A stretch of 6,626 nucleotides of DNA, from IMG/VR virus record IMGVR_UViG_2734482581_000014. One strand, given 5' to 3'. This DNA comes from a virus. Its lineage: Duplodnaviria; Heunggongvirae; Uroviricota; Caudoviricetes. Position 1 is the stretch's first letter. Every line of letters starts with the position of its first letter. The notes beneath the pieces are model-generated. The model was not told where the DNA came from. It did not search any database and saw only the letters and a program-made list of their open reading frames with translations. The position numbers were made by a program, and so were the translations under genes. Below, piece by piece: positions 2,264 through 5,469 of this stretch.

Positions 2264-2578
2264 TTACGTAACATCAAACGCTCTAATTGTTCCCAAATCC
2301 TCCAGACCACTCAGCTCCTCTTTCATTTCACGCTGACGGCGATAAATCTCATCGTTGCGATCGACCTGCGCCTGCACCATTGCTGCCGCCAGTTCTTCCA
2401 GTTCCGGCATCGACAGTTTCACCTGCTGCAGTTCCTGCCAGATTCGCTGACCCGTCGGTGCGACATCATCAGCGGTGGCTGTGTAGGGGACTGCCTGGTC
2501 CCTGTCGTCAAAAAAAACGTCACAGTCTACTGCGCCACTTTCGGTATAACGGGGATTAATGATTTTTTTAATTTCCAC
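2264..2578 (-). CDS. Hypothetical acidic protein, 104 aa from a GTG start; possible chaperone for the upstream fiber, family not recognised
   Basis: The track ORF 2264..2638 overlaps the 3' end of the fiber gene by 50 nt. An in-frame GTG at 2576-2578 lies 10 nt after the fiber stop, with GAGGAA 7 nt upstream, giving MEIKKIINPRYTESG...GTIRAFDVT. Position after a fiber gene suggests a chaperone, but the C-terminus lacks the Tfa-family motif seen in the gene at 3881-4426. Confidence 0.5.
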   Translation of the reverse strand: MEIKKIINPRYTESGAVDCDVFFDDRDQAVPYTATADDVAPTGQRIWQELQQVKLSMPELEELAAAMVQAQVDRNDEIYRRQREMKEELSGLEDLGTIRAFDVT

Positions 2579-2588
2579 GGTGCATTCC

Positions 2589-3857
2589 TCACGATGTGCG
2601 AATAAAAAGCCCGGGCATTGCGCCAGAGACATGAGCATCCGGCACCCCGGACAGGGCGCTATATGACCCCGGTAATGAATGCTCTGAACATCCCGTAATG
2701 AAAAATTGTGGGGATGCTATATACGTTCCGGTGGGAGTACTGGGCACTGAAATCCCCACCGGTCCCAGTCGTGAGCCTCTGTATGACTGCCCCCTGACAA
2801 GTCTGATGACTTTATCACCGTCAGCTTCTCCCTGGTACGCAGCAATAATCAGCCCGCCAATGTCAGGGTCTCCCCATCTGTTGCAGACAGAGCTCGCCAC
2901 GATTCTGTAAATAATATCTTCTGTGGTTATATTTATTTTCACCCAGCCAGTCAGTCTGGATATGGGCCAGTAGCAGTAGCGGGTGTGATAAATGGGGCCG
3001 TTAATGCCGTAAAAAGTAAGGGATTTGGCTCTGTACCTCGGTTCTGTTGTCTCAGGGCGTGCATCAGTCCACCGGATGCTGAGCACCCCTTCAAACCGTG
3101 TGTCGGGTATGATGATGTCGTAGGGGCCAGCAACGGAATATTCACCTGGCAGCGCATTCCTTACCCAGGCCAGGAAATCACTCTTAGTGTCAAAACGGAT
3201 AACATCTTCAGGCAGAAAAGCACACCCAAAGCCGAATGCGCCGGGTATCGCCAGACGGCCTTTTGTCCGGTCGTAAATGTCGCTCTGTGCTTCCATCGTG
3301 GCCGCACTTTTCAGCCCCAGATTATCCCGGGACTTCTGTTGTGCCTTTTCGCCTGCTGCTGCGATTTCAGACAGATGGTTAGCCGTTTTCAGAGTGCCGG
3401 TCAGCGCAGCATCAATGTCATTTTTGGCCTGCTCTGCTGCGCGGGCATAACCTGCGGCTGCCGCCACATCCTGCGCCGTCTGCTGTGCGTTTCCGGCTGC
3501 GGCCCCGGCGCTCTGCTGCGCCTGCGCCACCATTTCCTCAAAGCGTTTGACGACATCCGGTTTCAGGTCGCCCTCATCAGGAGCAATCAGAAAGTCATTC
3601 AGCGTGCCGGGCTTTGAGTCGTCGTATACAGCAATGTCGCCAACACAGTACTCGTCGCGCCAGTCCCGTTTCAGATACACGCAATATTTTCCGACCTGTG
3701 CCTCAAACGAATATTCACCGTTATTTCCGGTCACTACATCAGCCCTGGTACGCATCACCACTTCTGAGGTGTTTACACGGGATTTCAGAATAATCTGGCA
3801 TCCGGACATGGGGATGCCTGCGCCATCAGTCAGCGCACCTGATATCACTACAGACAT
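2589..3857 (-). CDS. Side tail fiber protein, 422 aa, with lambda Stf/StfR-type N-terminal domain
   Basis: The N-terminus MSVVISGALTDGAGIPMSGCQIILKSRVNTSEVV...VYDDSKPGTLNDFL...RFEEMV aligns with the N-terminal domain of lambda Stf / Rac StfR (MAVKISGVLKDGTGKPVQNCTIQLKA...VYEDSQPGTLNDFL). It is followed by an Ala/Gln-rich shaft-like segment and a roughly 200-aa C-terminal domain that I cannot assign. Confidence 0.8.
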   Translation of the reverse strand: MSVVISGALTDGAGIPMSGCQIILKSRVNTSEVVMRTRADVVTGNNGEYSFEAQVGKYCVYLKRDWRDEYCVGDIAVYDDSKPGTLNDFLIAPDEGDLKPDVVKRFEEMVAQAQQSAGAAAGNAQQTAQDVAAAAGYARAAEQAKNDIDAALTGTLKTANHLSEIAAAGEKAQQKSRDNLGLKSAATMEAQSDIYDRTKGRLAIPGAFGFGCAFLPEDVIRFDTKSDFLAWVRNALPGEYSVAGPYDIIIPDTRFEGVLSIRWTDARPETTEPRYRAKSLTFYGINGPIYHTRYCYWPISRLTGWVKINITTEDIIYRIVASSVCNRWGDPDIGGLIIAAYQGEADGDKVIRLVRGQSYRGSRLGPVGISVPSTPTGTYIASPQFFITGCSEHSLPGSYSALSGVPDAHVSGAMPGLFIRTS

Positions 3858-3880
3858 AGTTTTTCTCGCGATAAATTAAA

Positions 3881-4426
3881 TCAGGAAGAACCTTCCGGAG
3901 AGACGGACCATTCAATGGCGTTATATGAGGATTTATCAGTGATGGTGCTGAAATCCATCGCCTGCAGCGATTTCGCGTAAATACGGTACGCTTTCAGTTT
4001 TTCCCGGTCTTCGTCGCTGATTAGCCCCAGCAGCAGGTCTTCTTCCCATTCCCCTGTCCGGGCACTGACCTGAGCCAGAAGGGCATCACGCTCATCTTCC
4101 GCTTTGAGTCTGTAGTCAAAGACAAATTCATCATTGCGGTAAAACCAGTAACCCGGCGCGGTAATGCGGCGGTTGGCGGTAATATCAGGAACTTCAATAA
4201 CACTGGCGTTACGGGGTTCAATGCCTGTCACATCCTTACCGACCCACACCACGCGCCCGTCTCCGGTGTAAACCATTTTTATGGTGTCACTGGCAAAGTT
4301 CTTCTGTTCTTCATACCAGTTTTTGCCGTCTTCCGAAAAAAGCCAGGTGACATCATACTGTTTTGTCAGCTGATATTATTCCGCGGTTTTCGGATTACCT
4401 GCCGTAATATTTTTTAAATGCAACAT
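3881..4426 (-). pseudogene. tfa: Tail fiber assembly protein (Tfa, P2 gpG / Mu U family) interrupted by an in-frame ochre codon at codon 17
   Basis: From ATG at 4424-4426 the frame reads MLHLKNITAGNPKTAE-TAA(4376-4378)-YQLTKQYDVTWLFSEDGKNWYEEQKNF...VIEVPDITANRR...AIEWSVSPEGSS. Homology to Tfa runs across the stop, and homologues have EQYQLTK here, implying CAA->TAA. The longest stop-free ORF (3881..4276, 131 aa) lacks the conserved N-terminus. Confidence 0.8.
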
Positions 4427-4428
4427 TG

Positions 4429-5469
4429 TTAAATACTCGCTACGTTATACCAGGTGCCATTAATCAGTTTTTGCAGCGGTCGGTAATACACGCCGTTGAC
4501 GTTATCCGCTGAGTTACGGCCGGTATCCGATATCGATATCCCTGACAGCCCGTGTCCCGAAGGTGAGCGAAATGTCCACGAAACGGTGTTACTGCCGGGG
4601 GGGTAATACATTTCATAACCATACCGCACATCCTGCACGCCACCATTTCGCTGCTGGTAACGGGCATCAAAGTTTCCGTAGTCTGACGGTGTTACCCGTC
4701 CTGTAACGTTTACAGCTTTATTACTCTGGATACTGCCACTCTGAAAACGCAACACATGCACGCTATTGGCATAAACATCCAGCAGGCCATCACCATTCTG
4801 TTTGAATCCGGTGTCATTATCACCAAGAACAATTGAATTCCCCCCCAGGGCGTTCTGAACGCCGATACCCAGCGCACCATTGACCTGCGAACCACCGCCA
4901 ACAGACACTTTATGCGACATGGATATTTCACCCGTCCGCAGATTAATGGTGAACGGGCGCAGGGGACCAATATCGCCATTTTCCCCCTGACCTTCACTGG
5001 TGGGAATAAGGTGCAGGCACTCTTCCGAACGACGAAAAATCAGGCCAAAAGCTTCGTTGAAAATCCTCAGCGCATTAACACCACGGATTTTCAGCTCTCC
5101 GGTCATGGTGTCGCCATCACGCTGAACGGCATTTTTTGCCTTATCCACCGTGGGTTTTAATCCGAGGTTTTCAACAGCCTCATCCCTGTCTTCCACATCC
5201 GAAAGGTTATTTTTTATCAGCAATGCCTCTTCGTTAATTGCACCGCCCACCAGCAATAATATAGCCTTATATAGCTGGTCGTGTTCTTCTTTATTCAGTT
5301 CTATCCCGGCCTTCTCAATGACACCACAGATTTCCTCCTGAATGGCATTCCACATGGCACTGTTCAGCCAGGTAGCAAGACGTCCTGTGCGAAGATTTCC
5401 GTCAGTAAATCCGTTCTTACCCGGACCAAACTTATCTTTTACCGCAGTCAGCGTATCAATCCTGTGCAT
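4429..5469 (-). CDS. Phage tail fiber protein, about 346 aa, with P2 gpH-like C-terminal receptor-binding region
   Basis: The C-terminal segments NALGGNSIVLGDNDTGFKQNGDGLLDVYANS and RPLQKLINGTWYNVASI closely match the P2 gpH C-terminus (NALGGSSIVLGDNDTGFKQNGDGILDVYANS ... RPIQKYINGTWYNVAQV). It lies between the gpI-like and Tfa genes, as in the P2 J-I-H-G order. Start is chosen at ATG 5467-5469 (AGGA 5 nt upstream); in-frame ATGs at 5473-5475 and 5479-5481 are alternatives. It overlaps the upstream gene by 14 nt. Confidence 0.8.
   Translation of the reverse strand: MHRIDTLTAVKDKFGPGKNGFTDGNLRTGRLATWLNSAMWNAIQEEICGVIEKAGIELNKEEHDQLYKAILLLVGGAINEEALLIKNNLSDVEDRDEAVENLGLKPTVDKAKNAVQRDGDTMTGELKIRGVNALRIFNEAFGLIFRRSEECLHLIPTSEGQGENGDIGPLRPFTINLRTGEISMSHKVSVGGGSQVNGALGIGVQNALGGNSIVLGDNDTGFKQNGDGLLDVYANSVHVLRFQSGSIQSNKAVNVTGRVTPSDYGNFDARYQQRNGGVQDVRYGYEMYYPPGSNTVSWTFRSPSGHGLSGISISDTGRNSADNVNGVYYRPLQKLINGTWYNVASI

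Follow-up and report, generated by a model that had tools for sequence, protein, structure and literature searches.

The 6,626-base-pair (bp) stretch analysed here, IMG/VR record IMGVR_UViG_2734482581_000014 of a virus of the Caudoviricetes, is called the window, and coordinates refer to it throughout except where another locus is named. Its phage genes very probably form the right-hand end, next to the attachment (att) site, of a phiP27-type temperate myophage with a Mu-like contractile tail at ssrA, whose intact relatives carry two host-recognition modules in one late operon and whose copy in the window is decaying. Module 1 consists of a tail fibre of the Mu S / P2 gpH type (fibre 1) and a tail fibre assembly gene (tfa). 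Module 2 consists of a fibre with an N-terminal domain of the lambda Stf type (StfN; fibre 2) and a gene for a DUF4376 protein. All open reading frames (ORFs) of both modules are on the minus strand, at the positions given in a preliminary description of this DNA that had reported two heterologous fibre modules on one strand. When the two fibres and the two small downstream proteins were compared between the modules by blastp, no similarity was detectable (best E-value 0.2), and "heterologous" is therefore the correct term.

Homologies, gene order and conservation were observed directly. In phage phiP27 (NC_003356), genes L52-L57 follow the order J, YmfQ, fibre, Tfa, StfN-fibre, DUF4376, and the prophage then ends with attR (the gene content of L54-L57 was taken from the GenBank annotation alone). 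Gene order, strand, protein families and the spacer of 23 nucleotides (nt) between the modules are the same as in the window, and the nucleotide identity amounts to 93% over positions 4625-6543 and to 80% over the region of tfa and StfN. However, phiP27 uses another attachment site, and its fibre 2 has 490 amino acids (aa) and a diverged C-terminal region. Moreover, phiP27 has kept tfa, the DUF4376 gene and J intact, whereas these genes are degraded in the window. The order from J to DUF4376 was also found at ssrA in Escherichia coli C311, which carries an intact-looking phiP27-like prophage in the same orientation as the window, and in strain FDAARGOS_944. Phage vB_Apl-pPE4 (pPE4) keeps the four-gene block together with J and I genes of different size, and an integrase gene comes next; as calculated from the annotated coordinates 6977 and 7001, its module spacer also measures 23 nt.

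For a broader comparison, 41 IMG/VR loci were fetched through their YmfQ protein and then classified. In the group closest to the window (YmfQ 97-100% identical), the StfN fibre follows tfa in 20 of the 22 informative loci; in one exception an ipaH-like gene replaces module 2, and in the other a deletion runs into host genes. The 23-nt spacer is exact in 17 of the 18 IMG/VR junctions in which both flanking genes were detected. A contiguous tfa-to-StfN junction was also present in 89 of 5,426 complete E. coli genomes. Since the junction is conserved in the lineage, the tandem is a conserved, dispensable phage feature and not a local accident. The block conservation in phiP27, pPE4, the 20 close loci and the 89 genomes fits, for this lineage, the earlier suggestion of a phage carrying two fibre specificities. 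A pattern scan of genome contigs with YmfQ gave 248 pattern matches, none of which was confirmed; our guess is that the species-representative E. coli genome does not carry the prophage.

Co-occurrence of the modules, which the preliminary description had proposed to examine across relatives, holds in the close group and breaks down in a sister group (YmfQ 93% identical) that has module 1 alone. Of the DUF4376 gene, only the final ~38 codons are left in the seven sister loci that reach past tfa. In the sister lineage L038-L051 (~9001-11064 and 12773-12886 of the loci), this remnant lies 54 nt after tfa, and it looks like a scar left by the deletion of module 2. In the same lineage, YmfQ is lengthened to 319 aa by a repetitive C-terminal tail, and an additional 349-aa ORF without known function lies between YmfQ and fibre 1. 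We also observed genes for ipaH-family leucine-rich repeat (LRR) effectors at the att-proximal end of phiP27-like prophages (L015, 11386-13689; L003, 4193-5834). The gene in L015 stands in place of module 2, and FDAARGOS_944 (L003) has a frameshifted ipaH gene just past the DUF4376 gene.

The genes upstream of the modules had been described as baseplate genes of the myovirus type, and matches to Mu gp47 and gp48 bear this out. On the minus strand, positions 5456-6046 encode a 196-aa baseplate wedge protein of the Mu gp48 / YmfQ type (PF10076, E 2.3e-25; blastp against Mu gp48, E 2e-14). At 6046-6543, on the same strand, a baseplate J / Mu gp47 gene (PF04865) is represented by its 3' part (~166 codons), and homology to phiP27 L52 ends at 6543. 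The full-length J homologue of C311 matched Mu gp47 in PDB 9ki1 (E 1.8e-36), a Mu baseplate structure that contains both gp47 and S.

Fibre 1 (346 aa, 4429-5469, minus strand) follows these genes, just as S (gp49) and U (gp50) of Mu and gpH and gpG of P2 follow wedge genes of the gp47/gp48 type. It aligns with Mu S at both ends: the match to the Mu tail fibre S in PDB 5yvq (E 4e-25) comprises three colinear stretches, including residues 30-97, and blastp against Mu S gave an E-value of 8e-20. Fibre 1 also matched PHROG 6859 (E 5.5e-209). Its residues 99-346 align with residues 376-669 of P2 gpH (33% identity, E 2e-29, blastp). This alignment starts only at residue 99, and Pfam found no PF12571, the N-terminal domain that P2 gpH possesses, on fibre 1. 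The label "P2 gpH-like" given to this fibre in the preliminary description is thus appropriate for the C-terminal two-thirds but not for the N-terminal part, which is of the Mu S type. With 346 aa, fibre 1 is shorter than Mu S (504 aa) and P2 gpH (669 aa). Unlike Mu, the window has neither an invertible segment nor S'/U' genes nor gin.

The second gene of module 1 is tfa (3881-4426, minus strand, 181 codons), which is of the Mu U / P2 G type and a pseudogene in the window. The part that matches Caudo_TAP (PF02413, E 7e-21) is the 131-aa ORF at 3881-4276. An intact Tfa homologue showed 41% identity to both Mu U (E 2e-48) and P2 G (E 8e-47). The assembly gene had been assigned to the right type; its true start, an ATG at 4426, and the TAA at codon 17 had been overlooked. 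The spacer between the modules (3858-3880, minus strand) contains neither a terminator nor a promoter.

Fibre 2 (422 aa, 2589-3857, minus strand) is composed of the StfN collar domain, a linker and a receptor-binding region. Residues 1-131 (3465-3857, minus strand) matched Pfam PF08400, phage_tail_N (212.6 bits, E 2.4e-63), which confirms the earlier assignment of this N-terminus to the lambda Stf type. The first 92 residues matched the N domain of lambda Stf in PDB 9e7m (E 4.6e-17), and the identity to lambda Stf is 45% across ~110 aa; past residue 110, no match to lambda Stf was found. The N-terminal ~92-130 residues are the same domain as in Stf of Ur-lambda. They are followed by an Ala/Gln-rich linker or coiled region and by the C-terminal receptor-binding region (aa ~172-422; 2592-3344), likewise on the minus strand. 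Lambda itself differs in two respects: its tail is non-contractile, whereas the phiP27-type relatives have genes for a sheath, a tube and a Mu-type baseplate, and its stf is followed by a cognate Caudo_TAP Tfa, whereas fibre 2 is followed by a DUF4376 protein without similarity to Tfa. A further relative is the collar spike gp40 of the Vibrio myophage XM1, which also sits on a simple Mu-like contractile tail and has an N-terminal immunoglobulin (Ig)-like domain homologous to the N-terminus of fibre 2. Residues 1-198 of fibre 2 matched gp40 (PDB 7kjk) with an E-value of 1.1e-6; this similarity is far weaker than that to lambda Stf, and the rest of gp40 is unrelated. The preliminary description had regarded the Stf N-terminal domain as normally belonging to lambdoid side tail fibres. 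This view is too narrow, as a homologue anchors the collar spike of XM1 (PMC10457771) and Stf is conserved in both sipho- and myophages (PMC12617516).

Across relatives, the N domain of fibre 2 is 75-100% identical, and the total length varies from 422 to ~1,050 aa. The C-terminal ~220 residues are 98-100% identical in the closest relatives and only 28-46% identical in more diverged ones. A variable C-terminus combined with a constant N domain is a sign that fibre 2 may act as a working receptor-binding fibre in intact phages. The C-terminal region is also found on other N-termini. E. coli proteins of ~416 aa combine a PF12571 (P2 gpH-type) N-terminus with a C-terminal region like that of fibre 2 (40-50% identity, full coverage). 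PF12571-type fibre genes of other E. coli myophage prophages have a fibre-Tfa pair in front of them and a DUF4376 gene behind them, and the SerU-LTIIb prophage fragment carries a related tip with a DUF4376-like stf2 gene (stf/stf2 pair). Given these different N-terminal adapters, the tip of fibre 2 and the DUF4376 gene behave as an exchangeable cassette.

In every inspected relative whose sequence extends that far, a DUF4376 gene stands behind fibre 2, and in all close relatives its product has 187-190 aa. The window holds a remnant of this gene (2264-2578, minus strand; 104 aa). Although the ORF as called spans 2264-2638, the true start is likely the GTG at 2578, judging from the GAGGAA that precedes it. 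The intact homologue in L008 scored 61.6 bits on PF14301 (E 1.1e-16), well above the cutoff of 25; the copy in the window reached only 19.3 bits, because residues 52-133 are deleted. NCBIfam gave no match for any of the five proteins of the window. A function for this family is known from the Alteromonas myophage V22, in which the ~190-aa DUF4376 protein gp27 is likewise encoded directly downstream of a tail fibre (gp26). V22 gp27 is required for maturation and cell binding of the upstream receptor-binding protein and is not part of the final fibre complex (PMC7289586); it has been named a DUF4376 chaperone (PMC10579305). The two DUF4376 proteins are related at the family level only (PF14301), and the comparison does not extend to the fibres. 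By analogy with the V22 experiment, module 2 would be a pair of fibre and chaperone like module 1, with the DUF4376 protein as the putative chaperone of fibre 2 and belonging to an unrelated chaperone family.

Several lesions mark the copy in the window. The J gene is cut by the insertion sequence (IS) IS1 at 6544, and further IS1 insertions were seen in tail genes of sister genomes. In tfa, which starts at ATG 4426, codon 17 is TAA (4376-4378, minus strand), whereas FDAARGOS_944 (L003), phiP27 and C311 have CAA. The nonsense codon is shared with sister Shigella loci: L008 is identical there, and in L004-L011 the genes were called downstream of the stop. Past this codon, gene callers begin at a CTG (162 aa) or at a later ATG (123-131 aa). 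The DUF4376 gene has lost 249 bp (82-83 codons) by an in-frame deletion with its junction at 2427/2428, which removes residues 52-133 of 187 aa. None of the nine close relatives used for comparison (eight sister Shigella loci and FDAARGOS_944) lacks these 249 bp. The junction reads CTGCA|GCAGG, with a microhomology of just 2-3 nt. The preliminary description had noticed the small ORF but neither this loss nor the IS1 cut of the J gene. With J interrupted by IS1, tfa carrying a nonsense codon and the DUF4376 gene lacking most of its domain, the copy in the window is a non-functional remnant and not an intact prophage with complete tail genes. From its sequence, it is predicted to be unable to make a working tail or either fibre in a correctly chaperoned form.

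For docking sites, chaperone dependence and receptor specificity in intact phages, we infer the following arrangement from the homologues. Fibre 1 would dock via its N-terminal part on the gp47/gp48 wedge, by analogy with Mu S, and Tfa would help to fold its distal tip and may remain bound to it; Mu Tfa is reported to stay bound to the fibre tip, as quoted in PMC7289586. Fibre 2 would be anchored by its StfN domain, as trimers forming a ring on the tail, and its C-terminal receptor-binding region would be matured by the DUF4376 protein. In Ur-lambda, 12 StfN copies form a collar at the gpV/gpM junction, where tube and tip meet, and hold four trimeric fibres (PMC12617516). In XM1, gp40 sits on the neck as six trimers, with its N domain bound to the connector and terminator rings (PMC10457771). 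Since the tube of a myophage is covered by the sheath, a ring at the neck or at the baseplate junction is the most plausible StfN site; a neck location of fibre 2 in phiP27-type phages would follow from XM1. We tentatively propose that in intact phiP27-type phages the StfN ring may anchor a second set of side fibres at the neck or at the baseplate/tube junction, that is, a lambda-type apparatus on a Mu-type tail, and that the tip and the DUF4376 gene may form a portable cassette that also occurs on P2 gpH-type adapters and on the stf of SerU-LTIIb. In the literature, we found neither a structure nor genetics of a virion with an StfN ring on a Mu-type tail.

The same two-module phage could be built differently, with fibre 2 branching off fibre 1, its bound Tfa or the periphery of the baseplate; some T5-like and multi-tailspike phages have branched fibres of this kind. 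Such branching would agree with the reported binding of Mu Tfa to the fibre tip and with the fact that tfa, the StfN-fibre and the DUF4376 gene travel together across at least two myophage backbones with J and I genes of different size (phiP27-like and pPE4). It would also accommodate the sister prophages that fill the position of fibre 2 with a fibre bearing the other N-terminal adapter, PF12571. However, the partners of the homologous N domain in the two solved structures are ring-shaped proteins of the tail or neck and not another fibre (PMC12617516, PMC10457771). We regard branching from fibre 1 or Tfa as a minority alternative and an unlikely one.

Some observations weigh against a phiP27-type phage end with two working modules and an StfN ring. 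Module 2 is dispensable in some relatives, as seen in the sister group without it and in the locus with ipaH instead. In PDB sequence searches, neither of two phiP27-like neck proteins, the tail terminator and the product of the ORF beside it, matched the solved partners in XM1 or lambda. Likewise, no experiment showing both fibres in phiP27-type virions was found, in a search that did not include the 2002 phiP27 genome paper. Finally, the truncated DUF4376 ORF is on record only in this contig and is therefore strain-specific or an assembly artefact; the 249-bp deletion comes from a single short-read contig, and an artefact is possible.

A quite different origin had been offered in the preliminary description, namely a recombinational patchwork of two prophage tail ends. 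In this case, a lambdoid tail end (Stf) would have been recombined onto a Mu/P2-like tail end in this genome or a recent ancestor, and the fibres would have no joint function. Tail-fibre regions are indeed mosaic, the 45% identity of StfN to lambda Stf over ~110 aa would suit such an origin, and the related locus L056 looks like a hybrid of this kind. Yet the identical 23-nt junction is shared by phiP27, pPE4 and nearly all measurable IMG/VR relatives, the tfa-to-StfN junction recurs in complete E. coli genomes, and the window has no lambdoid gene, IS element or att scar between its modules. The conservation of the junction largely refutes a local event, which we consider very improbable, and because the junction is so widespread, any joining must be ancient and has been maintained since.

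In the hybrid-like locus L056 (5440-10785), a Mu-type baseplate and a fibre 1 of the phiP27-like kind are joined to the right end of another prophage type (L055, L057, L058). This right end comprises tfa, a fibre 2 of the PF12571 type, a DUF4376 gene and three more genes, with coordinates and lengths equal to those in L055, L057 and L058. L056 is apparently a recombinant whose two parts meet in the conserved tfa or close to it.

That the modules are alternative fibres expressed singly under the control of a programmed switch such as inversion or phase variation, as in the Mu G and P1 C segments, is hardly credible: the locus does sit where Mu has its invertible S'/U' genes and gin, but the modules share one strand and one operon, no recombinase homologue was found in the window (tblastn with Mu Gin, best E 0.99), inverted repeats are limited to chance-level short matches (no long one in the window; the longest has 27 nt at 74% complementarity), no invertase is annotated beside the block in phiP27, C311 or pPE4, and fibre 2 has a complete N-terminal anchor domain and is therefore not a swapped C-terminus. 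A Gin/Pin/Cin shufflon was rejected on the grounds of strand, invertase and inverted repeats, in line with the preliminary description.

It is common for phages to have two receptor-binding systems, and the dual-fibre arrangement described here is already known: every component belongs to a described family, and the whole order is present in a published phage genome and in the routine annotation of many genomes. The wider importance is accordingly limited. The comparison explains why two unrelated fibre genes stand in a row in Shigella and E. coli prophages at ssrA, as a conserved design for dual receptor binding. The modular build of N-terminal adapter, receptor-binding tip and matching chaperone bears on the prediction of host range and on the engineering of phages and tailocins.

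The window is one entire draft contig, CWZT01000195.1 of assembly GCA_001254075.1. Chromosome CP022457.1 (L008) is 100% identical to it except for one deletion, and the nearest proteins in the public collection are mostly named after Shigella sonnei. The contig is bounded by insertion sequences on both sides, which are typical break points of short-read contigs. On the left, positions ~1-90 are the end of an IS4-family element; E. coli homology begins at 91, and sister genomes have an IS4 transposase gene here, next to yfjF. On the right, the IS1 end (6544-6626, strand not assigned) is 100% identical to annotated IS1 in the P1 and SfIV records, and loci L004-L009 carry IS1 transposase genes at the position equivalent to 6544.

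Between the IS4 end and smpB (1006-1488) lie yfjF and ratA on the minus strand. They are followed by ssrA, the gene for transfer-messenger RNA (tmRNA), at 1703-2065 on the plus strand (ARAGORN; Rfam RF00023, 295.8 bits). As the prophage end abuts the 3' end of ssrA, we take this gene as the integration locus. A hairpin on the minus strand at 2184-2213 (GCCTCTGA-N8-TCAGAGGC, then T6), 51 nt past the stop codon of the last phage gene, was read by inspection and probably terminates the tail operon. On the plus strand, too, it has the form of a terminator, and a consensus terminator scan did not list it. The 114 nt just 3' of ssrA (2066-2179) share 91% identity with the terminal 114 nt of the Cronobacter phage phiES15, and may be an att-flanking sequence shared by ssrA-integrating phages. 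In loci L005 and L009 (~11,900-21,269), the part of ssrA next to the phiP27-like remnant is limited to its last ~35 nt (window 2031-2065), and a second prophage, which has an integrase of its own (Arm-DNA-bind_2 / Phage_integrase), comes next; this layout suggests a tandem integration at ssrA with duplication of the att core.

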